Shown here: in pieces, positions 2,349-61,660 of the stretch
How the letters are laid out: each line of letters opens with the position of its first letter
How positions within the stretch are numbered: the first letter of the stretch is position 1
DNA from: an uncultured Desulfobacterales bacterium
GTDB taxonomy: Bacteria; Desulfobacterota; DSM-4660; Desulfatiglandales; HGW-15
Length of the DNA: 64,000 bases
NCBI GenBank assembly: GCA_964443135.1
Contig: CAYUBQ010000003.1
Span: 62,174 to 126,173 of the forward strand
Direction: 5' to 3'
Program-made: the position numbers and the translations under genes
The notes under the pieces: generated by a model
What the model was told of the DNA's origin: nothing
Seen by the model: the letters and a program-made list of their open reading frames with translations, nothing else
Databases searched by the model: none

Positions 2349-3596
2349 TTATCGGAGACGGAGGGTCTGCTCGCTGGGGGCGTCGAGGGCGAGCAGCAGC
2401 AGGACGTAGCGCTTGAGGTTCTTGATGATCAGGAACTCGTCCTTGACCCTCTGGTACCCGTTTTCGCCCAGCCTTTTCGCGGCGTCGGGCCGGTGGAGCA
2501 GGGAGCGGATCGCCAGGCCGGCCCCCTCCACCGAGTGGACCAGGAGCCCGGTGTGGCCGTCGATGATCTGGGCCGGAATGCCGCCCACGGCCCCGCCGAT
2601 CACGGGCCGCCTCTTCCAGAGCGCCTCCGAGACGGTGAGCGCGAATCCCTCCCGGAGCGACTTCTGGAGCACCACGTCCGACCCGCGCTGAAAGGCGTTG
2701 ATCTCCGTGGCCACGGACGGGCTGAACAGGAGGATGTGGATGTCCGGATCGTCGCCCGCCTCGGCCCGCACCTGCGCGACGATCTCCTCGGACTCGGGAT
2801 CGTCCGCAGCCTTGTCCCCCACGAGCAGCAGCCGGCAGTCCACGTACTTTCGGGCCATCTTGTAGGCCCGGATCACGCCGATGGGATCCTTCCAGGGGTC
2901 ATAGCGGGAGATCTGGGTGACCACCGGCTTGTCGCGGGGAACGCCGTACTTCGAAAACACCCCCTCCACGTAGTCGTCGTCCAGCGGCCGGTTCTTGTCG
3001 TCCAGGGGGTCGATGGCCGGAAAGAACCGGAACTGGGGAACGGCCAGCCGGGGGGAGAAGAGGGCGGAGGAGAAGATGGCCGCGTCGTAGCGCTCCACGT
3101 AGGGCCTGAGAAAGTCCCATACCTGGGGGTTGGGGTGGGACATGTCGATGTGGCACCGCCAGACCCAGCGGTTGGTCCTTTCCTCGTTCCAGGCGATCAG
3201 GGCTGCGGGCTGCGGGTCGTGGATCACGACGAGGTCCTGGTCGAACGTCATCCGGCTCGCGTTCGCCTCGTTGCATCCCAGGTAGGCCTGGAAGTCCTCG
3301 TCGGACAGTCGGAGCGGGTTCCCCTGGAGGGCGTTGTGAAACGACTTGGTCACCTCGAAGAACCGGTCGTTCCCCTCGATCACGTCCCACTCCACCGGAA
3401 TCCCCAGCTCGGTGAGAAGCGGCACCACGCGGTGGAGCATCTCGGCCACGCCACCGCCCACGGCGGTGGAGTTCACCATCTTGATGGAGCGCGTTCCCGC
3501 GTGGGCGGCCAGGATGGTCAGCTCCTCGATGATGTCCGGGCCCACGACGTCCACGTAGTCCGCGAGGGTGGGATTGTTCGTTCCGGTCTCCTGCAT
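2349..3596 (-). CDS. Family-4 glycosyltransferase, trehalose-synthase (TreT)-like
   Basis: The translation MQETGTNNPTLADYVDVVGPDIIEEL...VNSTAVGGGVAEML resembles TreT-type GT4 enzymes. The start was set at the ATG preceded by GGAG; the track ORF extends to 3782. Confidence 0.8.
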   Translation of the reverse strand: MQETGTNNPTLADYVDVVGPDIIEELTILAAHAGTRSIKMVNSTAVGGGVAEMLHRVVPLLTELGIPVEWDVIEGNDRFFEVTKSFHNALQGNPLRLSDEDFQAYLGCNEANASRMTFDQDLVVIHDPQPAALIAWNEERTNRWVWRCHIDMSHPNPQVWDFLRPYVERYDAAIFSSALFSPRLAVPQFRFFPAIDPLDDKNRPLDDDYVEGVFSKYGVPRDKPVVTQISRYDPWKDPIGVIRAYKMARKYVDCRLLLVGDKAADDPESEEIVAQVRAEAGDDPDIHILLFSPSVATEINAFQRGSDVVLQKSLREGFALTVSEALWKRRPVIGGAVGGIPAQIIDGHTGLLVHSVEGAGLAIRSLLHRPDAAKRLGENGYQRVKDEFLIIKNLKRYVLLLLALDAPSEQTLRLR

Positions 3597-3652: not shown

Positions 3653-4297
3653 TCAGGCGGAGGCGTGCCCGTCGATCAGCTCCAAAATGCGCGACCTGAG
3701 TCCCTCGATGGTGTACACGTTGAGGTCGATTCTCCGGATCCGGTCCGCGAGGTCGGGCATGCGGAGACCTTCCTCGATCCACCTGGAGAAGTCATTGTCC
3801 TCCAGCTTCTGGAGCCGGGATTCGATGAAGTGCAGGTAGAGGGAGTAGATACTGATCTGCTCGATGTTTTCGCGAAACGAAGCGAGGCTGTAGGCGAACT
3901 TGTCCGTGAGATAGACGACGCGGGTGATGTCGTACAGGTAGAACGGGTCCTCCGCTGTTTTCTCGAACGCCGAAGGCCTCTCCGAGCGGTGGATCTCGAT
4001 GATCTCGATCAGTCGGGATCGCAAATCCTCCGTGGTGCTGTACTCGGAGAAGTCCACGGCCATGAGCTTCTCGGCGAGCGCCTTTTCGTTCAGGCTCGTG
4101 GCCGCCCAGATGGCGAAGTCGCTGTTGTAGGGCACCTCGGCTTCCTTCAGCTTCAGGAAAGCGGAAAAGGTGTGGTAGAAGACGGACGAAGACCGGCAGG
4201 TTCTCAGGAGGTGGAGAAGCTCCTCCAGGTTGTACGCCTTCCGCCCGGTCAGCATCTCCAGGGATGCGCTCGAAGAGAACTGAAATACGTCGGCCAT
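3653..4297 (-). CDS. Conserved hypothetical protein co-oriented with the glycosyltransferase (recalls DUF5752-type partners, unverified)
   Basis: 214-aa ORF with a balanced, non-GC-skewed composition (MADVFQFSSSASLEMLTGRKAYNLEELLHLL...). It ends about 56 nt before the GT start. Confidence 0.65.
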   Translation of the reverse strand: MADVFQFSSSASLEMLTGRKAYNLEELLHLLRTCRSSSVFYHTFSAFLKLKEAEVPYNSDFAIWAATSLNEKALAEKLMAVDFSEYSTTEDLRSRLIEIIEIHRSERPSAFEKTAEDPFYLYDITRVVYLTDKFAYSLASFRENIEQISIYSLYLHFIESRLQKLEDNDFSRWIEEGLRMPDLADRIRRIDLNVYTIEGLRSRILELIDGHASA

Positions 4298-4358
4298 GCT
4301 GCGCCTCGCTTGGGTACCCGCCTCCGGGTTTTCGGAACCGGTCTCGTACGGTCGATCC

Positions 4359-4733
4359 TCAGGGCGACGGGGTCCCGGGTCCCTCGACCGGCGGTCGGGA
4401 AAGGAGGACGATGCCCACGAGGGCGAGGAGGAGGAGCGCCAGGATGGACAGGACGTTCCCCTGAAACACCGAGGGCACCATGAGCGCCCCGAAGACCAGG
4501 GATGCGATCCCGAGGATCTTCCGGCCGATGACCTTGATGACCGCGCCCGTGAGCAGCGCCCCGACGGCCCCGATCAACGTCAGGACCATGATCAGGTTCC
4601 GGGTGCCTGAGGAGAGACCGCCTTCGCCCATTCGGATGGGGCCCGGCCCCGCGCCGGAGCCGCTCCACAGGGCCGCCACGATCCCCAGAACACCTGCAAT
4701 GACCAGAAGTACGACCATGTTCCGTATCCTCAT
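4359..4733 (-). CDS. Small integral membrane protein
   Basis: MRIRNMVVLLVIAGVLGIVAAL... contains 3-4 hydrophobic helices. A GGGAGG RBS lies 8 nt upstream of ATG 4733. Confidence 0.55.
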   Translation of the reverse strand: MRIRNMVVLLVIAGVLGIVAALWSGSGAGPGPIRMGEGGLSSGTRNLIMVLTLIGAVGALLTGAVIKVIGRKILGIASLVFGALMVPSVFQGNVLSILALLLLALVGIVLLSRPPVEGPGTPSP

Positions 4734-9203: not shown

Positions 9204-9484
9204 CTCGACCCTCCTTTCCCCCGGACGGGTATCATGGTTTCGATCATCCTAAGCGATCCGGGCAACCCCCGGAATCGGGCCCTTCATGTATTCGCGGCAA
9301 CAGCGGCCTGTAGGCTCCACGGCCGACCTTTCCACGAATACAGGTTCCGCCCCATTGACCGGTCCCCGTGCATTGGCTAGGCTTTACAGGATACCGGGGG
9401 ATCCGAGGTCTCCGGTCCCTGGACCCGAGAACGCTCTGCGACGAGCGGGGCGCAAGCCAACCACAAAGCGAAAGGAGTGGAACC

Positions 9485-9697
9485 ATGGCAGGAAGCACTT
9501 ACAAGATCATCGAGCTGGTGGGAACGAACGACAGTTCTTGGGAGGAGGCCGCGAAAACGGCCATCGAGACGGCGACGGGGAGCCTCAAGGACCTCCGGGT
9601 CGCCGAGGTGACCCGGCTGGACGTCACCTTGACCGAGGGCAAGATCACCTCTTTTCGCACGCGCCTGAATGTCTCTTTCAAGTACCAGGCGTCCTGA
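9485..9697 (+). CDS. Dodecin-family flavin-binding protein
   Basis: MAGSTYKIIELVGTNDSSWEEAAKTAIETATGSLKDLRVAEV... is 70 aa and fits the dodecin pattern. An AAAGGAG RBS is present. Confidence 0.8.
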   Translation: MAGSTYKIIELVGTNDSSWEEAAKTAIETATGSLKDLRVAEVTRLDVTLTEGKITSFRTRLNVSFKYQAS

Positions 9698-9725
9698 TCC
9701 CGCGGGACGATCCGGCAAGTCCAAA

Positions 9726-9760
9726 GACGCCCCGCTGCGGGTGACCGGAGCGGGGCGTCT
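9726..9760. terminator. Hairpin between convergent genes (possible bidirectional terminator)
   Basis: GACGCCCCGCT-loop-AGCGGGGCGTC forms an 11-12 bp GC-rich stem. There is no clear U-tract. Confidence 0.45.
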
Positions 9761-9845
9761 ACCTCTCTTCAGGACCGCAGGGGGCGTTCCGGTGCCCCCC
9801 GCCAGGCGGTCGATTCACGGCCGGGGCATGGTCCCCGGCCCCCGT

Positions 9846-9956
9846 TCACAGGATCAGCATGAGAATCACGGCCACGACCAGGAGGATCAGGCCGAACACC
9901 AGGAACTTGCCGAATATCCTGCTTTCCTTGTCGGGGGGTGGAACCTTCTCTGCCAT
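9846..9956 (-). CDS. Unannotated 36-aa single-pass membrane peptide downstream of the octahaem cytochrome
   Basis: Manual translation gives MAEKVPPPDKESRIFGKFLVFGLILLVVAVILMLIL. A GGAAAGGAG RBS lies upstream, and the gene starts 23 nt after the upstream stop. It is below the track length cutoff. Confidence 0.4.
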   Translation of the reverse strand: MAEKVPPPDKESRIFGKFLVFGLILLVVAVILMLIL

Positions 9957-9979
9957 GGGAATCTCCTTTCCCGGTCAGC

Positions 9980-11267: not shown

Positions 11268-11591
11268 TCACCTGAGCTCGGCGTACATCTCCCCGCCGGT
11301 GCAGCGGATGTAGAGGTCCGCGTCCCCGAACGGGATGATCTTCTCCGTCACGTCCACGTCGATGGTGCCCTCCCCCAGGACGGTCTCGTTGACCACGGCG
11401 CGGTACTTCGCCTGGCAGTCGTCGTTTTGGATGTGCAGGAACACATCGCCCCTGCGGCTCTGAAAGATGGCGAAGGTGTGGTTTGGGATCCGCTTGGTCT
11501 CTGCGAAAACCGCCGCCGGGGGCAGGACCAGGAGGGACAGGAGCAGGGCGCCCAGGACCAGCACGCAGGACGGTTTTTTCCATCTCTTCAT
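11268..11591 (-). CDS. Small secreted protein of unknown function
   Basis: MKRWKKPSCVLVLGALLLSLLVLPPAAVFA is a signal peptide and is followed by a roughly 80-aa domain. The gene lies immediately upstream of the HAO-like gene. Confidence 0.55.
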   Translation of the reverse strand: MKRWKKPSCVLVLGALLLSLLVLPPAAVFAETKRIPNHTFAIFQSRRGDVFLHIQNDDCQAKYRAVVNETVLGEGTIDVDVTEKIIPFGDADLYIRCTGGEMYAELR

Positions 11592-11723
11592 GGGAATGCC
11601 TCCTTGCCGGGATTGTTGCAGGCCTTTTCCGTACATCTTTTCACGGTTCGGAACGCCGTGCCATGGGGTGAATCGTGTATTCGGTCCGGGCCCGGCCCGT
11701 CAAGGCCCCCGGGTGACGCGTCA

Positions 11724-11972
11724 GGGTTTCACCCGGACCGTGGCCCGGGCCTCGCCGATCTCGACGACCGGCACGGTCCCGATCTCCACGAGATCGGCCA
11801 CGGACTGCGGCAGCTTCCGGTAGTTCAGGGTCGCCTCGATCCTGAGCTCGCCTTCCGGGGCCTTCTCCGGGACGTTCCACTCGTAGATCTCGGTGCGCGC
11901 TTTCAGGGGATCGAGGCGCAGGTTGAACCACGAATGCGGTCCATGGAATGGGGCCGATCCCCCATTCGACCG
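11724..11972 (-). pseudogene. Start-less open frame with protein-like composition (possible 3' gene remnant)
   Basis: The frame reads ...HSWFNLRLDPLKARTEIYEWNVPEKAPEGELRIEATLNYRKLPQSVADLVEIGTVPVVEIGEARATVRVKP-stop. It has no ATG/GTG/TTG near its 5' end and is bounded upstream by TGA. Confidence 0.3.
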
Positions 11973-12136
11973 TCATGCGGGCCGTATTCGGCCGTCTACT
12001 GCCGTTTGCTCCAAGAGGTAGGGATCGAACCCATTCTCAGAGGAGGGGGTGATGGCGTATGGATGGGGGACGCCATCGAGAACGCACAGCCCGCCTCTGC
12101 CGTCCAACCGGGGTAGGGGCTCCCAGGAGGAAAGGC

Positions 12137-27072: not shown

Positions 27073-27190
27073 GACATGCTCCTTTCTTTTGTCTTCGGGG
27101 TTTTCGCAGTTACCCGTCCCCGCCGTGAAAGCGTCTCCGGCGGGGGGTTCTCTTGTTTTGATTGCCTCGTCAAACGGACATGACCGGAGT

Positions 27191-27319
27191 CCGGTCACCC
27201 CGCTGATGAAAACCGGGTGTTTTCGTAGGGCGGGGTTTTACACCACGCCGTGCTTGTCGCAAGCCTTGCGGCGGCATGTGAGGCCCACCGCGGGGCATTT
27301 TCACGGTGAACAGTACCCG
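27191..27319 (+). repeat. REP-like dispersed repeat, family 2, copy A
   Basis: About 130 bp clearly alignable with 61520..61660. Shared blocks are CCGGTCACCCCGCTGATGAAAAC, CGTAGGGCGGGGTTTTACACC, GTGCTTGTCGCAAGCCTTGCGGCGGC and TTTTCACGGT. Confidence 0.75.
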
Positions 27320-33072: not shown

Positions 33073-33393
33073 GATTGACGCATTCGCAGAAACCCGCTCA
33101 CGCGCCGCTGGGGAGGGTATCACCTGTTGAAATCTCGTGGGCAGATCTCGAGGATTCGGGTTTTTTGCGACTCCATCAGGATTGACGCATTCGCAGAAAC
33201 CCGCTCACGCGCCGCTGGGGAGGGTATCACCTGTTGAAATCTCGTGGGCAGATCTCGAGGATTCGGGTTTTTTGCGACTCCATCAGGATTGACGCATTCG
33301 CAGAAACCCGCTCACGCGCCGCTGGGGACGATATCACCTGTTGAAATTCCAGGGGCAGATCTCGAGGATTCGGGTTTTTGCGACGCCATCACG
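33073..33393 (+). repeat. Tandem array of three 107-bp units (family 1): copies 1 and 2 identical, copy 3 diverged
   Basis: Units start at 33073, 33180 and 33287. Each carries TTGAAA-N17-GAGGAT and the core GCAGATCTCGAGGATTCGGGT(5-6)GCGAC. Confidence 0.95.
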
Positions 33394-33418: not shown

Positions 33419-34591
33419 ATGCCGATAGCGGAACGAATGGTGGGTATGGTGGAAGGCTCTTCCATGATTCGAAAGATGTTCGAGGAGGGGGCCCGGCTCA
33501 AGGCGGAGCACGGAGCCGACAAGGTGTTCGACTTCTCCCTCGGCAACCCGGACCTCCCCCCGCCCCAGGCATTCAAGCGGGCGCTGGTGGAGCTGATCGA
33601 GGATCCTTCCACGAGCCACGGCTACATGCCGAACCAGGGGTACCCGCAGGTGCGGCAGACGGTGTCCGGCTACATCCGGGAGGAGTACGGGGTGGAGATC
33701 CCCCCCGAGCTGATCGTCATGACCGTGGGCGCGGCCGGCGCGCTCAACGACTCCCTGACCGCCCTGATCAACCCGGGGGAGGAGGTCCTCGTGCCGTCCC
33801 CCTACTTCGTGGGATACAACCAGTACGCCTTCCAGGCGGGCGCCGTGGTCAAGACGGCGGAGACGGACCAGGCGTTCCGGCCGGACTTCGAGGCCCTGGA
33901 GCGGGCCGTCACCGAGAGGACGCGGGTCGTGCTCATCAACTCGCCCAACAACCCCACGGGCGTGGTCTACACGGCGGACGAGCTGAAGGGGTTCGGCGAC
34001 CTGCTGGAGCAGGCCAGCCGCAGGTACGGGAAACGCATCTACCTCATCTCCGACGAACCGTACCGGAAGATCGCCTACGACGTGGAGGTGCCGTCCGTGT
34101 TTCAGGCCTACCCCCACTCCATCCTGGTCACCTCCTACTCCAAGGAGCTGTCCCTGGCCGGGGAGCGCATCGGCTACCTGGCCGTCAACCCGGCGGCCGA
34201 GGACGCGGCCCAGGTGGCGGCCGCAGCGGCGGTCTCGAACACCATGCTCTACGTCAACGCCCCCAGCCTGTTCCAGCTGGCCATCGCAAAGGTCATGGGA
34301 ATCTCCGTGGACGTCTCCATCTACCGAAGGCGGCGCGACCTTCTCTGTGAGGGGCTCCGAAAGGCGGGGTACGTGTTCGTGGAGCCGAAGGGGGCGTTCT
34401 ACCTGTTCCCCGAGACGCCCATCGAGGACGACGTGGAGTTCTGCCGAATCCTGATGGAGGAGCTCATCCTGGCGGTGCCGGGAAGCGGCTTCGGCAGGGG
34501 CGGCCATTTCCGGCTCTCCTACGCCGTGCCGGATCAGGCCATATCCGGCGCCATGGAGGGGTTTGTGCGGGCCGTGGACAGGGCGTCCTGA
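33419..34591 (+). CDS. Class I/II pyridoxal-phosphate-dependent aminotransferase (aspartate-aminotransferase-like)
   Basis: DFSLGNPD, NSPNNPTG and SYSKELSLAGERIGY (PLP Lys) motifs. GGAGG RBS. Confidence 0.9.
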   Translation: MPIAERMVGMVEGSSMIRKMFEEGARLKAEHGADKVFDFSLGNPDLPPPQAFKRALVELIEDPSTSHGYMPNQGYPQVRQTVSGYIREEYGVEIPPELIVMTVGAAGALNDSLTALINPGEEVLVPSPYFVGYNQYAFQAGAVVKTAETDQAFRPDFEALERAVTERTRVVLINSPNNPTGVVYTADELKGFGDLLEQASRRYGKRIYLISDEPYRKIAYDVEVPSVFQAYPHSILVTSYSKELSLAGERIGYLAVNPAAEDAAQVAAAAAVSNTMLYVNAPSLFQLAIAKVMGISVDVSIYRRRRDLLCEGLRKAGYVFVEPKGAFYLFPETPIEDDVEFCRILMEELILAVPGSGFGRGGHFRLSYAVPDQAISGAMEGFVRAVDRAS

Positions 34592-34623
34592 TCGAAGACG
34601 ATCGCATCGGAGCGGTGAGTGGA

Positions 34624-34848
34624 ATGGACGCCGATCTCCTGCTGTCGGAGGCCGTCGAAGGCGTTCGGCGGAGGCACGGGCTCGGCCGACGGATCTGCCT
34701 GGGGTACGAGCGGCCTCCGGAGCGTTCGGTGGACGGGACCATGACCTGCCCGAGGTGCGGCGGTCTTCTGGACTACACCGTTTCCTCCTACGACGGCGCC
34801 ACCCGCGGTCGGTGCCGGACGAGCGGTTGCCTCCGCTGGACCGAGTGA
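34624..34848 (+). CDS. Small zinc-ribbon protein
   Basis: MDADLLLSEAVEGVRRRHG...CPRCGG...CRTSGC. A GGAG lies 11 nt upstream. An alternative GTG start is at 34615. Confidence 0.4.
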   Translation: MDADLLLSEAVEGVRRRHGLGRRICLGYERPPERSVDGTMTCPRCGGLLDYTVSSYDGATRGRCRTSGCLRWTE

Positions 34849-35011
34849 GATGCTACACCCGGACGGCGAGGGTAGGTCTCGAGATCTTCTCATGGTTCCC
34901 ATGGCTGCCTCCCTGCGTTCTTCCCGGTCCGTTCCGACCCTCACAGGCTGGTCTCGACGGGGCGCCGGGTCGAGATCGGGGCACTACCTCGAAAATCCCG
35001 CACGCTTTTCC

Positions 35012-35039
35012 TTGACAACGGGTCAAACAGGATTAAAAT
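35012..35039 (+). promoter_or_regulatory. Near-consensus sigma-70-type promoter
   Basis: TTGACA (35012..35017), a 16-nt spacer, then TAAAAT (35034..35039). Confidence 0.55.
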
Positions 35040-35224
35040 CCCCTCGGTCTTCGAGCGGTGAGTTCCGCGAACCCCGCGCCGGACGGTCGGATGGAGCCCT
35101 CCGACCCTTCCGCCGCCGGATCCGCGGAGACCGTTTCGAGCAACAGGTGCTCCCTTGGAGCCCGTGCACCCCGAACGTGACGGGGCGCATTCTCTATTTC
35201 GATGGAACTGAGGAGGAAAGAGCC

Positions 35225-35422
35225 GTGCTTTACTACACCAACCATCACCTGAATTTCGTCCGGTCTGCGTCGCAGGTCGGGCTCCCGGCCTCGGGCCGCT
35301 GCCCGTTCTGCCAGGACGAGCTGCCCGACTGCGACTGCGGCTGCGGCACCGCGGGCGGGCGGAAACGCGCCGCCGGAAACAGGGTCTCCAGGCGGCGGAC
35401 GGGGAGAAAGCGGCTGTTCTGA
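35225..35422 (+). CDS. 65-codon Cys-rich ORF with a basic tail (GTG start)
   Basis: (M)LYYTNHHLNFVRSASQVGLPASGRCPFCQDELPDCDCGCGTAGGRKRAAGNRVSRRRTGRKRLF. A GAGGAGG RBS lies 8 nt upstream, and a terminator follows. Confidence 0.45.
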   Translation: MLYYTNHHLNFVRSASQVGLPASGRCPFCQDELPDCDCGCGTAGGRKRAAGNRVSRRRTGRKRLF

Positions 35423-35460
35423 ACCGCACGGACGCGACGCGGGACATCGAGAGGACCCGA

Positions 35461-35487
35461 GGGCGGGATCAAGATCCCGCCCTTTTT
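35461..35487 (+). terminator. Rho-independent terminator
   Basis: GGGCGGGAT-CAAG-ATCCCGCCC followed by TTTTT. Confidence 0.8.
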
Positions 35488-35542
35488 CGTGGCAAGCGGG
35501 CACGGCCGAGCCGCCGCCGAAAGGATGCCGCGTGTTGCCGCG

Positions 35543-35571
35543 TTGACACGGGTCCGGGGGGCGGCTATCCT
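35543..35571 (+). promoter_or_regulatory. Sigma-70-type promoter candidate for the PLD gene
   Basis: TTGACA (35543..35548), a 17-nt spacer, then TATCCT (35566..35571). Confidence 0.45.
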
Positions 35572-35709
35572 TTCGGCAAGCCGTTGGTATCGGAGCGGTC
35601 CCGGGGGACGGAACGGAGCTGCAGTGCTTCTCGTCGCCTCACCGGGAGCGGAGGCGCCTCGGACGGCTTTCTCCGGGATGCCTTTCAAGAGACGGGTTCG
35701 AGGGGATCG

Positions 35710-43776: not shown

Positions 43777-45531
43777 GTGCGGGCGGTGCGACCTCCGAAA
43801 GGCGGCCCAGCCTTGACTCACGAAGGCCGGCACCATAAGACCGTGGCGTACCTCGTACCCGTTCCGGCGGAGAGCTTCACCCATCCGGTGCGGCTGGAGC
43901 ACGACGAAACCACCATCGGCCGGGACACCTCCAACCGGATTCGCCTGGCCCACGGCACGGTCTCCCGCTCTCACGCCAGGATCTCCAAGATCGGCGACCA
44001 GTACGTCCTGACCGATCTCCAGTCCCGAAACGGCACCTTTGTCAACCGGACGCGCACCCAGCGAGCCACCCTCCACTCGGGCGACACGATCTACTTCGGC
44101 AACCGGGCTTTCCTCTTCAAGCTGGAACACACCGAAGCCTCTGCACCTGAACTGGAGACGCCTCTCTCCCTGCCGGCGACGGTGACCATCACCGAGGACG
44201 CGGACATCGATCCCGCCGATCTCCTGGCCCGGGAGGCGGACCAGGCTGTCCACACCTTTCTCCACCTCTCGGAGGCCGGCGGGGATCGGACCGATCCCGC
44301 CGGCGTGGCCCATCAACGACTCTACCTCCTCTACCAGCTGACCGAGCAGGTTCGCTCGGGCGGAGAGCCGGACGAGGTGCTGGGCCGGGGCCTCGACCTG
44401 ATCTTCCAGGCCGTGCCGACCGCGGAGCATGCCGTGGCCCTCCTCAGGGAGGAGGGGACCGCGGGACCCCTGGAGGTCCGGGCGGTCCGGTTCCGGAACC
44501 CGGCGAAGGACGGCGGTCCGATCCCGATCAGCCGTACGGTGCTCGACTGGGTCGTGAGCGAACGGGTGGCTCTGGTCAGCCGCGACGCCCCGGACGACTC
44601 CCGGTTCGAGACGTCCGAGTCCATCAGGGTGCACAGCCTCGAGTCCATCATCTGCGTTCCCATGATGAGCGGCCGCCAGGTCATCGGCGCCATCCACCTG
44701 GACACCCGCGACTACCTGAACCCGCTGACCGGACCCGACATGGAGTTCGTGGCGGCGGCGGGCAACGAGATCGCCGTCTGGATCGAAAACCACCGCCTGC
44801 AGCGCAACGCCATCCGGAACGAACGTATGGCGGCCATCGGCATGACCGTCACCAATGTGGCCCACAACCTCAAGAACATGCTTCACATGAGCATGAACGC
44901 CGTCGCCATGATGAACCAGCGTCTGGAGGAGGTCGAGGACGACAAGATCCACACCCGGTGGCATCTCGTTCGGCGGTCTCTCGAGCGGATGAACCGCCTG
45001 GCGGCCGACATGCTCGAGTTTTCCCGGATCGAACCGCCGCCGCAAACCTGGATCGACGTGAACGATGCGCTCTACGACAACAAAGAGCTTTTCGAAAAGC
45101 AGCTGAAAGGGGCCGGCATCGATCTGGTGTGGGATCTGGCCCCCGACCTCCCCGAAGGCCTTCTGGATCCCGTACAGCTTCAGCGGGCCGTTCTCAACCT
45201 GGTGGTCAACGCCGAGGACGCGCTGAAAGGCGTCCCGAACGCCCGGATCGTGATCTCCACCTCCGTGGACGATCGCCGGCGTCTGACCGTCGGCGTCTCG
45301 GACAACGGCTGCGGGATCCCGCCCGACGAGCTCGACAAGGTGTTCCAGCTGTTCTACACGACCAAGGGGTCCGACGGAAGCGGCCTGGGCCTGCCCATGG
45401 TCCAGAAGTTCGTGAAGGCGGCGAACGGCAGGGCCGAGGTGGAGTCCGAGCCTGGCGAGGGCACCACCTTCCGGCTGGTGTTCCCCCGGGCCTTCGAAGA
45501 GGCCCCCCTGCGGGCTGCTCATCAAGGGTGA
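43777..45531 (+). CDS. Sensor histidine kinase with N-terminal FHA and central GAF domains
   Basis: FHA (TIGRDTSNRIRL..VSRSHARI..LTDLQSRNGTFVN), a GAF-like middle region, the H-box TNVAHNLKN and the ATPase G-boxes DNGCGI and GSGLGLP. The start is uncertain; an alternative GTG is at 43843. Confidence 0.85.
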   Translation: MRAVRPPKGGPALTHEGRHHKTVAYLVPVPAESFTHPVRLEHDETTIGRDTSNRIRLAHGTVSRSHARISKIGDQYVLTDLQSRNGTFVNRTRTQRATLHSGDTIYFGNRAFLFKLEHTEASAPELETPLSLPATVTITEDADIDPADLLAREADQAVHTFLHLSEAGGDRTDPAGVAHQRLYLLYQLTEQVRSGGEPDEVLGRGLDLIFQAVPTAEHAVALLREEGTAGPLEVRAVRFRNPAKDGGPIPISRTVLDWVVSERVALVSRDAPDDSRFETSESIRVHSLESIICVPMMSGRQVIGAIHLDTRDYLNPLTGPDMEFVAAAGNEIAVWIENHRLQRNAIRNERMAAIGMTVTNVAHNLKNMLHMSMNAVAMMNQRLEEVEDDKIHTRWHLVRRSLERMNRLAADMLEFSRIEPPPQTWIDVNDALYDNKELFEKQLKGAGIDLVWDLAPDLPEGLLDPVQLQRAVLNLVVNAEDALKGVPNARIVISTSVDDRRRLTVGVSDNGCGIPPDELDKVFQLFYTTKGSDGSGLGLPMVQKFVKAANGRAEVESEPGEGTTFRLVFPRAFEEAPLRAAHQG

Positions 45532-52008: not shown

Positions 52009-52237
52009 GACGTCCTCCTTCCGTTATGGGGGGTTCGGTTCGAGCGGGGACCGGGGCGGACCCCGGTCCGATCCTCGGGGCTTCGCTCGCGCCGCTCCGC
52101 CGCATTCTTCGAATAGCAAATGAAAACCGCAGGTACCAGAACATTTTCGGATTCGTCGCTCCGGCTTTCGAAACCCCGCAGAGGGGTCCACGCTGCGCAG
52201 GGTGGACCCTCGCGCCTGCGATCCCCGGGTTTCCGCT

Positions 52238-52266
52238 TTGTCATTTCTCGATTTTCTCTGTATGTT
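52238..52266 (+). promoter_or_regulatory. Sigma-70-type promoter candidate
   Basis: TTGTCA (52238..52243), a 17-nt spacer, then TATGTT (52261..52266). About 105 nt upstream of the NlpC/P60 gene. Confidence 0.45.
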
Positions 52267-52373
52267 GCGGTGTCCGGACGAACGCATGTCCTCCGGCATT
52301 CGAGAGCGCCTTTGGCGGTCCTTCATCCGGAAGGTTCCGCGGCACGGCGCCGGTTTCGAGGCGCGGGCCCCCC

Positions 52374-53150
52374 ATGAAGCCGAACAGTCCGATGAACCGA
52401 TTCCTGTTTCAGCTGATCGCTCTGTCGTTTTGTCTCGTCGCGGGGGGATGCGGCTCGAAGCCCGCCACGGCGCCTTCTCCCGGGAGGCCCTCCACGCCGG
52501 GGGTCACGGAAGCCGGCTACGCCGTGCAGCTCGGGGCCTTTTCGGTGCTCGGGAACGCCGTCCGCCTCACCGACCGGCTCGAGGCCCGGGGGGAGGCCGC
52601 CTACTACTTCCGTCACGCCTCCGGCCTCTACAAGGTCCGCCTAGGCGACTACCCCACGCGGGCGGAGGCCCTCTCCAAGGCCCGCGAGCTCGTGGCGGAG
52701 GGGCTCGTGGACACCTACTGGGTCGTCGGCCCCGAGGACTATGCCCTGGCGAGGGCCGGGATCCACGGCGACCGCCTGCTGAGAGACGAGATCGTTCGGA
52801 CGGCGAAAGGGTTCATCGGTCTGCCTTACCAGTGGGGGGGTGACAGCCCGGAGAGGGGGTTCGACTGCAGCGGGCTGGTCATGGCCTCCTACCAGATGAA
52901 CGGGCTCAACATCCCCCGCTCGTCCCGGGAGCAGTTCCGCCGGGGCCGCGTCGTGTCGGGGAAAGACCTCGAAAAGGCCGACCTGGTCTTCTTCTCCATC
53001 CGGTCGGGGAAAAAGGTGAGCCACGTGGGGCTCTATGTGGGAGAGGGGGCCTTCATCCACGCCCCGGGAGCGGGAAAGGGCATTCGCGTGGACTCCCTCT
53101 CGAACCCCTACTTCCGCAGGCACTACGTCGGGGCCAGAGCCTACCTCTGA
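52374..53150 (+). CDS. Lipoprotein with SPOR domain and NlpC/P60 (C40) peptidase domain
   Basis: Lipobox LVAGGC, a SPOR-like region (YAVQLGAFSVLGNA...YKVRLGDY), then GLPYQWGGDSPERGFDCSGLV...HVGLYVG. Confidence 0.85.
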   Translation: MKPNSPMNRFLFQLIALSFCLVAGGCGSKPATAPSPGRPSTPGVTEAGYAVQLGAFSVLGNAVRLTDRLEARGEAAYYFRHASGLYKVRLGDYPTRAEALSKARELVAEGLVDTYWVVGPEDYALARAGIHGDRLLRDEIVRTAKGFIGLPYQWGGDSPERGFDCSGLVMASYQMNGLNIPRSSREQFRRGRVVSGKDLEKADLVFFSIRSGKKVSHVGLYVGEGAFIHAPGAGKGIRVDSLSNPYFRRHYVGARAYL

Positions 53151-56235: not shown

Positions 56236-56598
56236 TCAAGCACCCGCGGGCTCGGACGGGGGCAGGGGAGACATCGCATCCAGGATGGAGAGCCCGACGA
56301 GGGTGTGATTGCGAAATCGACCCTCGACGGCCGGTGAAACGTGCTGGATTTTCGCACGCAGGATCCTGGGTGGTTCCGGGCTGACCGGACCGTAGAACTT
56401 CATTTCGAGGGTCGAACCCACGTGCAGGAAATCCAGCACGGGAGAATCCATGCGGACCAGAAAGCACAGCCCCTGGGCCGACAGGTTCCACAGGTTGAAC
56501 TGGTAGACATAGTCGAGCTCGGGCAGGGAAAGCTCCACGCTGTGGAAATCCCCTCCGGGGACGCGTTGCTCGCTCCGCCTGTCTGTTGGATCGATCAT
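56236..56598 (-). CDS. PilZ-domain protein
   Basis: RRSEQR (RxxxR) and NLSAQG (D/NxSxxG) c-di-GMP-binding motifs. 120 aa. Confidence 0.8.
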   Translation of the reverse strand: MIDPTDRRSEQRVPGGDFHSVELSLPELDYVYQFNLWNLSAQGLCFLVRMDSPVLDFLHVGSTLEMKFYGPVSPEPPRILRAKIQHVSPAVEGRFRNHTLVGLSILDAMSPLPPSEPAGA

Positions 56599-56613
56599 TT
56601 CCCGCTGTCTCCT

Positions 56614-56722
56614 GATTGACGGATTCGCAACAACCCGCTCACCCGCCGCTGGAAACGCTATAACCCGTTGACATTACCTGGGCAGATCTCGAGGTTGAGG
56701 CCTTTTTACGACTCCTTCCTGA
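56614..56722 (+). repeat. Dispersed copy of the 107-bp family-1 unit
   Basis: GATTGACGGATTCGCAACAACCCGCTCACCCGCCGCTGG...GTTGACATTACCTGGGCAGATCTCGAGGTTGAGGCCTTTTTACGACTCC. Carries TTGACA-N17-GAGGTT. Confidence 0.85.
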
Positions 56723-57248
56723 TTCGAGCGGGGGCGTCCTCCCGGAGCGGAGGTGCGGCCGGGTGTCGGGTCGTCGGCCCGGTCGCCTCACCCGTTCTCT
56801 CCCGGTCGAAGGCCCGCCGGGATCGGACCGGGATGTATCCCGCTTCCGAAACCGGAAGGAGGGTCCGGTGCCCGGACCCGCTGGAGATCCGTTCCAACGG
56901 TCCACGGCCGGATCGAGCAGGGAACCGGGGAACGGGAGAGAGCCTTCTCGAGGACTGCTGCGGGACCGGTTACGATGCAACCGGCGGGAAAAGACGGGGC
57001 CATGGACGCACGATGGCTTCGTTTTCGAAAGGCGGATGTCTCCGAGCTGTTCATGCTGTTCTCCAGGCGCGCTGCCGCAGCGGCCATGAGAATCGTGCCC
57101 CGTTCCTGTATAGGGCATCGACGGCGAATTTGCAACCGGCTTCGCATCCCGAGAAAGGAGATGCATCAACCATCGAAATGGGATAGGATCTCTCTACCCC
57201 CCCTGCAAAGAGCTTCCACAGGACGAAATCGGAAAGAGGAGGAAAGGG

Positions 57249-57722
57249 ATGCGTGGAATTCGGAAGGTCCTGGCAGCGATCGATCTATCCGACTACTCGA
57301 GAGAGACCGTGGGACTGGCGCTGGAGATCGCCCATGCCACCGGTGCCGAGCTCATCGTCGTCAACGTGATCAATCAACGGGACATCGAGGCCATGGAGAA
57401 GATCGCCGAGCAGATCAGCCATCTCTCGACGGAGGAGTACTTCAGGCACCGGGAGCAGGACCGGGAGCGTCGGCTGGGGGAGCTCCTCGACCGGTTCGGG
57501 GGGGCGAACAGCGGACTGGATATGCGGACCATTGTCCTCCGCGGCGTTCCCTTCTCGCGGATCATGGAGGTGATGCAGGACTTCGAGGTGGATCTGGTCG
57601 TCATGGGGGCGAAAGGCCGGACCAACCTGGCGGACGTGTTGTTCGGGTCCACGGCTGAAAAGGTCTTCCGGCACTCCCCGGTCCCCGTCCTGAGCGTTCG
57701 CCGCCGAGGCGAGGAGGATTGA
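57249..57722 (+). CDS. usp: Universal stress protein (UspA family)
   Basis: [12 protein letters not shown], the VVMGAKGRT.. pattern and a length of 157 aa. GAGGAGG RBS. Confidence 0.88.
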
Positions 57723-60439: not shown

Positions 60440-61339
60440 TCACGGTCGATCCGGTCCGGAGGACCGGCGGTCGTAGAACACGAAGACCTCTTCGCCGTAG
60501 TAGCGGCCGTTGATCACCTGCCCCGGTCCGAAACGCCGGATCTGCTTGCCCCGGAGGAAGCTCTCGAACCGTTCGTTCATCTCCTCCAGCGCAACGTCCT
60601 CCCGGAACCATCGGACCGGCACGTTCACGTTGATGGGGCGCGCCGACACCAGGTGTCGGGTCGCCTTGGGCGCGAACACCTGGCCGCGGCTCGCCGCGTC
60701 CACCACCATAGCTTTTGTGATGTGCGGTGTCCAGATGGCGAGTGCGTTTCGGCCGGGCACTCGGCAGGAGGCGTCGCCGGCCAGGTCCTGGCACGGGACG
60801 TACTCCAGCTCCGCCCCCTCCCGCACCAGCCGCCCCTGGATCCGCTCCAGGACCTCGTAGGCCTCGACCCCGCCGCAGACCCGGTCCGGGGGGAAGCGGA
60901 GCACCCCCCTGGCCTCCCCGCACTCCGCGCCCATGAGGAGGGGGTCCTGCTCGAGCCGGGCGGCGAGGGCCCGCCGGCCGGCCACAGGCTCCAGGCTTCC
61001 CCCCATCTCCTCGACGATCCCGCAGAGCCCTTCCAGGCTGCACACCCTCTTCAGCAGCCGGAACCAGTAGCGCAGCCCCACGTGATCGCTGTGGTAGTCG
61101 ATCCTGCAGACCGGGATGGTGCGGAACCCCAGACGCTTGAACACGAAGGTGCGGTGGTTGCCGTCCAGGACGATGTGGTTCCGCTCGACGATGATCGGGT
61201 TCTGGAGGCGGGCCCAGTCCTTGAGCTCGAGGGCGAGGCTGTCGGCCACGTGGGGAAGGGTCTCCTCGTGCTCTCGAAGCGTCTCGACCCGGACGACTTC
61301 CAGGTGCATGGTCAGGTCACCGGCCTCGATGACGAACAT
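60440..61339 (-). CDS. ParB/Srx-fold (ParB-like nuclease domain) protein of unknown function
   Basis: The N-terminal NPIIVERNHIVLDGNHRTFVFKRLG is the ParB/sulfiredoxin-type DGxHR motif. 299 aa. GGGAGG RBS. The track ORF extends upstream across a repeat. Confidence 0.7.
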   Translation of the reverse strand: MFVIEAGDLTMHLEVVRVETLREHEETLPHVADSLALELKDWARLQNPIIVERNHIVLDGNHRTFVFKRLGFRTIPVCRIDYHSDHVGLRYWFRLLKRVCSLEGLCGIVEEMGGSLEPVAGRRALAARLEQDPLLMGAECGEARGVLRFPPDRVCGGVEAYEVLERIQGRLVREGAELEYVPCQDLAGDASCRVPGRNALAIWTPHITKAMVVDAASRGQVFAPKATRHLVSARPINVNVPVRWFREDVALEEMNERFESFLRGKQIRRFGPGQVINGRYYGEEVFVFYDRRSSGPDRP

Positions 61340-61385
61340 CGTTTCGGTCCTCCCAACGTGCCCGAAGCTCGAAATGACGCGGATA

Positions 61386-61497
61386 CCGGTGGAGTCCCAA
61401 AAAGCCCGAAGCTTCGAGATCGTCCCTGGAATATCAACAGCTCCAGCGTTTCCGGAGGCGGGTGAGCGGGCTTTTGCGAATCCGTCGGTACCCAAAC
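61386..61497 (-). repeat. Dispersed copy of the 107-bp family-1 unit (reverse orientation)
   Basis: The reverse complement reads ACGGATTCGCAAAAGCCCGCTCACCCGCCTCCGGAAACGCTGGAGCTGTTGATATTCCAGGGACGATCTCGAAGCTTCGGGCTTTTTGGGACTCC. Confidence 0.85.
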
Positions 61498-61519
61498 GTC
61501 CATGGCCGGCGTCCGGCTT

Positions 61520-61660
61520 CCGGTCACCCCCGCTGATGAAAACGGGTGTCGTAGGGCGGGGTTTTACACCCCGTCGTGCTTGTCGCAAGCCTTGCGGCGG
61601 CGTGTGAAATGCCGCCCTACGCCCGGACCACCGAGGGGCTTTTTCACGGTAAAGGGTGCT
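61520..61660 (+). repeat. REP-like dispersed repeat, family 2, copy B
   Basis: Aligns with 27191..27319. Contains the 10-bp inverted repeat CGTAGGGCGG (61550..61559) / CCGCCCTACG (61612..61621). Confidence 0.75.

Follow-up and report, generated by a model that had tools for sequence, protein, structure and literature searches.

Layered architecture of the divergent non-coding region between a PilZ-like gene and usp in an uncultured Desulfobacterales bacterium

The region that separates a PilZ-like gene from the usp gene in the window (the whole stretch of 64,000 nucleotides that was analysed) is very probably a non-coding composite whose hairpins are not under selection. About 175 bases of it (positions 56962–57135), together with the usp promoter, look as if they have been kept by selection, and most of the remainder appears to be recently inserted or fast-changing. 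The GC-rich hairpins and the promoter-like sequence of a dispersed repeat, which had drawn attention to the region in the first-pass annotation, are the part for which we found no evidence of function; the part under selection is a conserved block and a promoter-like motif on the opposite strand. As a tentative mechanism, we propose a divergent control region with back-to-back promoters, in which the conserved block would be the promoter-proximal leader of the PilZ-like gene.

Organization of the region and absence of coding signal

The intergenic region is 650 bp long (positions 56599–57248). Its left border is the PilZ-like gene (120 aa, positions 56236–56598), which lies on the minus strand and is transcribed away from the gap, and its right border is usp (157 aa, positions 57249–57722, plus strand; Pfam Usp, E = 3.6e-29). 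Since the two flanking reading frames are divergent, the true unit is the whole 650-bp divergent intergenic region, and the gap is real but does not lie downstream of the PilZ-like gene. The sequence and its coordinates, the two perfect hairpins, the TTGACA-N17-GAGGTT motif, the ribosome-binding site GAGGAGG, and the usp start codon ATG at position 57249 all read as first described.

The PilZ-like protein of the window itself matches Pfam PilZ with E = 0.0033, under the cut-off; 11 of its 13 orthologs match PilZ (best E = 6.6e-06), with conservation of the RxxxR and NxSxxG motifs. The Shine–Dalgarno sequence of the gene, AGGAGA (positions 56608–56613, minus strand), is contained in a TCTCCTG by the start codon that is conserved in all lineages. 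It should be noted that the last ~20 codons of the reading frame (positions 56236–56300) have lost the codon-position GC signal and are unconserved among orthologs, which may mean that the tail is disordered or that it lies beyond the end of the functional protein. A literature search on divergent PilZ–usp pairs returned nothing relevant.

The absence of coding capacity is supported by several results. The codon-position GC content is flat (0.55–0.78) across positions 56600–57250, compared with 0.3/0.9/0.65 within usp, and the periodicity is strong in both genes flanking the gap. The long stop-free reading frames of the gap had no match in Pfam, and a search of 5.8 billion proteins with the concatenated six-frame translation of positions 56700–57170 returned nothing at E ≤ 10. 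A 119-aa minus-strand reading frame of the gap gave one marginal match (E = 6e-4, in five short stretches; HMMER, 1.84 billion representatives), which is probably due to low complexity. The non-coding character of the region, as first proposed from the letters alone, is therefore confirmed.

The statement that no known RNA family is present also holds. At gathering thresholds, Rfam gave zero matches in the whole 64-kb window; at E ≤ 10, the sole match in positions 56400–57500 was a eukaryotic lncRNA (E = 5.6), and at E ≤ 5 the sole match in four relatives (L111, L109, L092, and L087) was a snoRNA (E = 1.8). An intrinsic terminator, that is, a GC-rich hairpin followed by a T run, was found on neither strand of positions 56599–57248, the single match being located inside the PilZ-like reading frame. 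Plasmid and phage collections contained no match to the gap.

The length of the gap is less exceptional than had been thought. The region is long, but a crude coding-potential map of the window contains other stretches without coding signal of at least 400 nt, at positions 34592–35709, 9204–9979, 11565–12136, and 52009–52523, so that several such stretches, of 400–1100 nt, are present elsewhere in the window. The first of these, of ~1.1 kb, has no reading frame with a convincing coding-potential score and no Rfam match, and is longer than the PilZ-like/usp gap.

The description of the gap as packed with stable hairpins is overstated: compared with shuffled sequence, the folding of the whole gap is barely above chance (plus strand, z = −2.4; minus strand, z = −2.0). 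For both sub-regions, the spacer and the conserved block described below, the minus strand (z ~−2) folds slightly more stably than the plus strand (z ~−1). Caution is required here, because in a genome of 67% GC, long stop-free and hairpin-rich stretches arise by chance.

Lineage comparison of the repeat, the spacer and the usp unit

Relatives were collected as metagenome loci found by usp and PilZ-like protein searches and by context look-ups, and the layering of the gap was derived from five lineages. The closest is L092 (usp 96% identical), whose contig begins within the 107-nt repeat. In L085–87 (usp 90%) the PilZ-like gene and usp are separated by a 544-bp gap, in L111 (PilZ 91%) the sequence reaches 488 nt upstream of the PilZ-like gene, and in L107–109 (PilZ 86%) the gap is 373 bp and usp is truncated to 99 aa. 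Of the other loci, L088 (usp 88%) reaches only 261 nt upstream of usp, L089/90 (usp 83%) has an NlpC/P60 gene 131 bp from usp, L091 (usp 82%) has the PilZ-like gene within ~100–150 bp of usp, L093 (usp 74%) has tdh 434 bp from usp and no PilZ-like gene, L094 (usp 63%) has another gene 355 bp from usp, and L110 (PilZ 70%) has an unrelated context. Upstream of usp, all of the lineages examined show rearrangement.

Rearrangements also affect the neighbouring genes. The kbl–tdh pair beside the PilZ-like gene is a fused remnant in L091 (positions 3948–4500 of that locus), and tdh is internally deleted in L085 (positions 3134–3505, with a 123-aa product called) and intact in L086, which marks this neighbourhood as a deletion hotspot. 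When genome contigs were scanned with the protein of the adjacent tdh gene, all matches were distant tdh genes (≤70% identity), none with the PilZ-like/usp locus; the nearest were from Desulfobacterota MAGs. In L110, the PilZ-like gene stands directly downstream of a tRNA-like sequence (GGGCGATTAGCTCAGT...CGCCCGCCA, positions 2900–2975) among unrelated genes, and from this context the PilZ-like gene itself has evidently moved around.

The first layer of the gap is a copy of a dispersed 107-nt repeat (positions 56614–56720, plus strand), which the comparison with relatives identifies as a lineage-specific insertion. The window contains five copies in 64 kb: three in perfect tandem at positions 33073–33393, the copy in the gap, and one on the minus strand at positions 61389–61486. 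The repeat is present in L092, and an empty site corresponding to positions 56617/56717 is found in L085–87, L107–109, and L111, so that, of the four other lineages in which the remainder of the gap is kept, three are without the repeat. The gap copy has the 8-nt direct repeat TCCTGATT on both sides (positions 56610–56617 and 56717–56724). Taken together, the absence from relatives and the flanking direct repeats indicate that the element entered the gap recently, separating the ribosome-binding site of the PilZ-like gene from the remaining sequence. The flanking sequence TCCTGATT resembles the end of the element itself.

The only inverted repeat seen in the element is internal (TCGCAGAAACCCG / CGGGTTTTTTGCGA) and ends in a T run. 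RNAalifold on four repeat copies showed no covariation, and neither terminal inverted repeats nor a link to a transposase was clear. Short-read contigs break inside the repeat, and exact look-ups of window proteins gave only window-identical contigs broken there. The organism is present in samples SRR15425352, SRR15425353, and SRR15425355. Two loci have a start codon 26–50 nt beyond the 3′ end of the repeat and oriented as the repeat is (from position 33393 to the ATG at 33419, and from position 61389 to the start at 61339), and the repeat may serve as a promoter or UTR or in a terminator-like manner. The minus-strand copy at positions 61389–61486 is contained in a 269-nt insertion (positions 61383–61651) that is absent from L085, L086, and L088; this insertion also has a second repeat, common to positions 27129–27307, with a 59-nt core that is 95% identical (positions 27223–27281 and 61549–61607).

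The second layer is a GC-rich spacer (positions 56725–56961), which contains the two perfect hairpins (positions 56843–56858 and 56861–56879). Its identity to relatives is 62–71%, below that of the third codon positions of the flanking genes (64–83%), and in L107–109 positions 56747–56972 are replaced by 73 nt. Neither of the hairpins, which had been put forward as structure, is intact in L085 or in L092, the closest relative, and the structure conservation index (SCI) of the spacer is 0.46–0.49. The folding of positions 56721–56961 gave z = −0.95 on the plus strand, where 37 of 200 shuffled sequences fold as well, and z = −2.09 on the minus strand. The spacer is a single-copy sequence; a resemblance between positions 56792–56830 and 44255–44293 (79% over 39 nt), which falls within what reads, by eye, as coding sequence, was taken as chance. 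Judged by its rate of change, the spacer with its GC-rich hairpins is apparently drifting, neutral filler.

A different picture emerges at the right end of the gap. The motif GAGAAAG-NN-GATGCAT-N13-GGGATAGGAT (positions 57151–57189, plus strand), with the putative −10 element TAGGAT at positions 57184–57189, reads GAGAAAG-NN-GATGCAT-N13-GGGATA(G/T)GAT across relatives and is followed by a short 5′ UTR (positions 57190–57248) with a conserved GAYGAAATCGG and the ribosome-binding site GAGGAGG (positions 57236–57242). The motif is kept in orthologs down to 74% protein identity, has a recognizable variant at 63% (L094), and is the only part of the gap common to L088, L089, L091, and L093. In L088, L091, and L093 (74–88% orthologs), blastn homology to the window begins at positions 57147–57152, and in L089 and L094 it begins nearer the usp ATG. 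From this conservation we infer that the motif is the usp promoter; compared by eye, none of the sigma-54, RpoH, and sigma-B consensus sequences fits it. The unit at positions 57150–57248 travels with usp, and everything upstream is reshuffled between lineages.

These data bear directly on the suggestion that the TTGACA-N17-GAGGTT of the repeat (positions 56668–56696) drives a plus-strand transcript forming a long structured 5′ UTR of usp. The TTGACA is a perfect −35 element with a 17-nt spacing, and for the complete gap the plus-strand fold has the z value of −2.4 given above. Against this, the motif sits inside a repeat that L085–87, L107–109, and L111 lack while keeping the rest of the gap; GAGGTT has only two of the six bases of the −10 consensus TATAAT and fails the promoter scan, which called no promoter-like site; the plus-strand sub-regions fold with z ~−1, and the hairpins are unconserved. 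In addition, usp has its own conserved motif 100 nt upstream of the ATG, and its distant orthologs share only the unit beginning at position 57150. A repeat-driven usp leader is thus extremely unlikely.

Conserved block and a putative promoter toward the PilZ-like gene

The expectation that something functional lies in the gap is borne out by a clade-specific non-coding block at positions 56962–57102 (strand inferred as minus). Its identity is 95, 91, 80, and 83% in L092, L085, L107, and L111, respectively, compared with third-position identities of 93–95, 75–83, 64–76, and 76–80%, and the block is rated above the third-position level in four of four comparisons. Conservation in relatives, which had been proposed as a check of the whole gap, is found in the block and the usp unit but in neither the hairpin spacer, which is below third-position identity, nor the repeat, which is lineage-specific. 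A handful of relatives suffices here to separate neutral filler and a mobile-repeat insertion from ~175 nt under selection.

The block is single-copy and occurs only at loci of the clade. A metagenome scan with the 20-mer CCGCAGCGGCCATGAGAATC found one true homolog, on an already-known contig, and the other 11 matches, of 22–25 nt, were due to chance. PilZ-like orthologs outside the clade (L091 and L110) are without the block, which is consequently not essential to the PilZ-like gene family. Conservation ends sharply near position 56962, where the L107 deletion also begins.

Immediately upstream of the block on the minus strand is a predicted sigma-70-like promoter, TTGCAA-N17-TATACA (−35 at positions 57130–57135, −10 at positions 57107–57112), directed toward the PilZ-like gene. 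In five lineages, 11 of the 12 hexamer positions are invariant (the exception being one C/T, TATAYA), whereas the spacer between the hexamers varies at 10 of 17 positions. This is the only match to the motif in the window, and 0 of 100 shuffled sequences match. Each hexamer agrees with the consensus (TTGACA and TATAAT) at four of six bases, with a 17-nt spacing; a stricter consensus scan rejects the site because the last −10 base is A and not the strongly preferred T.

The loci L107–109 are informative for assigning the block to one of the two genes. Their usp is homologous only in residues ~1–70, the 3′ half being deleted up to the lpdA stop (L107 positions 2328–2627), and the finding of the truncated gene in three independent samples (L107, L108, and L109) indicates that usp is dispensable in that lineage. 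There the identity of the usp promoter region is down to 60%, and the block is kept at 80% against third positions at 64–76%, with the minus-strand hexamers intact. The retention of the block beside a truncated usp and a decayed usp promoter ties it to the PilZ side and not to usp.

The folding data for the block give no support to a conserved RNA structure among the five lineages. The minus-strand fold has z = −2.05; the RNAalifold covariation term was +0.68 and −0.28 in two runs (five lineages), double changes occur in only 2 of 40 pairs, and 11 of 500 shuffles attain the same covariation score, which is within the false-positive range stated for the tool. Alignments with shuffled columns fold no worse than the real one: the column-shuffle z is −0.08 on the plus strand and −0.88 on the minus strand, with an SCI of 0.68–0.69, values to be read as coming from five lineages only. 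A structured RNA, one of the first possibilities considered for the gap, thus finds no support in covariation.

The block also contains a conserved GGAGAA-N6-ATG, which the leader model leaves unexplained. Reading from this ATG, the five lineages are in three different frames after ~20 codons, a frameshift with respect to the window being present even in L092; the variable sites within the initial 20 codons number 5, 8, and 7 at codon positions 1, 2, and 3 (hand count, minus strand). A small conserved reading frame (MNSSETSAFRK...) behind this start was rejected because of the frameshifts between the closest relatives and because substitutions show no third-position excess.

The same observations can be read as the remains of a decayed gene, of which a promoter, the GGAGAA-ATG, and ~20 codons survive before the frame is scrambled. 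The conserved putative minus-strand promoter, the Shine–Dalgarno-like GGAGAA 6 nt before a conserved ATG, the partly conserved N-terminal peptide MN.SE.SAFRK, the frameshifts and deletion downstream, and the rearrangement upstream of usp in all lineages examined would fit such a history. The two protein searches speak against it, as neither yielded a convincing homolog: the six-frame search was empty, and the one marginal HMMER match probably reflects low complexity. Nor is there a Pfam match or codon periodicity, the variable sites are spread over the three codon positions, and conservation of the block above the third-position level is not expected of a dead gene. A decayed gene, as had been considered from the outset, is accordingly very unlikely.

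The tentative mechanism that we propose places two back-to-back promoters at the right end of the gap. The usp promoter and a ~55-nt UTR would form one unit (positions 57150–57248), and the minus-strand sigma-70-like promoter (positions 57107–57135) would fire leftward through the ~140-nt block, then the spacer, and then the repeat, so that the transcript would finally reach the ribosome-binding site of the PilZ-like gene with a leader of ~500 nt. The first ~140 nt of this leader would be selected for primary sequence, to which a protein or an sRNA might bind at the RNA or DNA level; the spacer would be neutral or dispensable, and the 107-nt repeat would be a recent passenger within the leader, restricted to this lineage and L092. 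The two promoters, the strand that is transcribed, and the assignment of the block to the PilZ-like gene are deduced from sequence comparison, and our tentative grading covers the mechanism as a whole, the inferred leader included.

The reading of the block as a PilZ promoter and leader rests on the pattern in L107–109, the lack of an intervening terminator, the minus-strand fold preference, and the direction of the promoter. Several facts weigh against it: the putative −10 ends in A and fails the stricter scan, L091 and L110 have the PilZ-like gene without the block, five lineages give little power, and sites that act at the DNA level on one or the other promoter could account for the conservation.

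This last point leads to the alternative in which the block acts only as DNA and transcription of it is not required. It would then contain clustered operators or upstream activating sites, bound by a regulator that controls the usp promoter, the PilZ promoter, or both. Such a cluster would explain why primary sequence and not pairing is conserved; the block lies 50–190 bp upstream of the putative usp −10, and it contains a conserved inverted repeat, TTCTC-N27-GAGAA, whose GAGAA occurs again in the usp motif. The retention of the block at 80% in L107–109, in spite of the truncated usp and its decayed promoter, is difficult to reconcile with this alternative, as are the 140 conserved nucleotides, which are long for operator sites, and the usp orthologs outside the clade that are without the block. 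We regard a DNA-only role as plausible, albeit rather improbable.

Also plausible, though unlikely, is an independent minus-strand sRNA of ~140 nt that ends before the spacer, with the PilZ-like gene using its own nearer promoter. The promoter-like motif directly upstream of the block, which is conserved above the neutral level, would suit such an RNA, as would the sharp end of conservation near position 56962 at the start of the L107 deletion and the minus-strand z of −2.05. It is opposed by the lack of an intrinsic terminator on either strand, by the failure to find a conserved fold (covariation term ~0, SCI of 0.69, and z of −0.88 against shuffled columns), by the empty Rfam searches, and by the fact that no alternative PilZ promoter was recognized. 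If an independent non-coding RNA exists, it would lie on the strand opposite to that assumed in the first-pass annotation, within positions 56962–57102 and not among the hairpins.

Significance and comparison with known systems

It is doubtful that the block represents a new cis-regulatory leader or small RNA, recognized by primary sequence, for a stand-alone PilZ-domain c-di-GMP receptor in a narrow, uncultured, high-GC clade labelled Deltaproteobacteria. If the block is indeed a leader or sRNA of a PilZ-domain gene, it would be a small lineage-specific addition to c-di-GMP regulation in an uncultured group, and general understanding would be unchanged even then.

The proposed arrangement, a long leader before a gene of c-di-GMP signalling (a PilZ-domain receptor), resembles that of the c-di-GMP riboswitches (RF01051, c-di-GMP-I/GEMM, and RF01786, c-di-GMP-II). 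It differs from them in that no covariance-model match was obtained even at E ≤ 5–10 in the window or in four relatives, and in that no conserved secondary structure was found.

The 107-nt repeat is similar to REP- and MITE-like dispersed repeats in being short, non-coding, multi-copy, and intergenic, in differing in presence between close relatives, in the 8-nt direct repeat that flanks the gap copy, and in breaking short-read assemblies. Unlike them, it also occurs as a perfect tandem triplet, and neither terminal inverted repeats nor an association with a transposase were evident.

A further parallel is with divergent bacterial promoter regions that have a long leader on one side. As in these, the two genes are transcribed apart, the leftward sigma-70-like motif stands ~15 nt from the usp motif, and only short blocks of the gap are conserved while the rest drifts. 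The present region differs in its unusual length of 650 bp, which is due to lineage-specific sequence and the repeat insertion, and in its conserved part downstream of the leftward motif, which at ~140 nt exceeds the usual length of an operator or leader element. Overall, the gap appears to be another instance of a familiar conserved promoter and leader region with a putative function.
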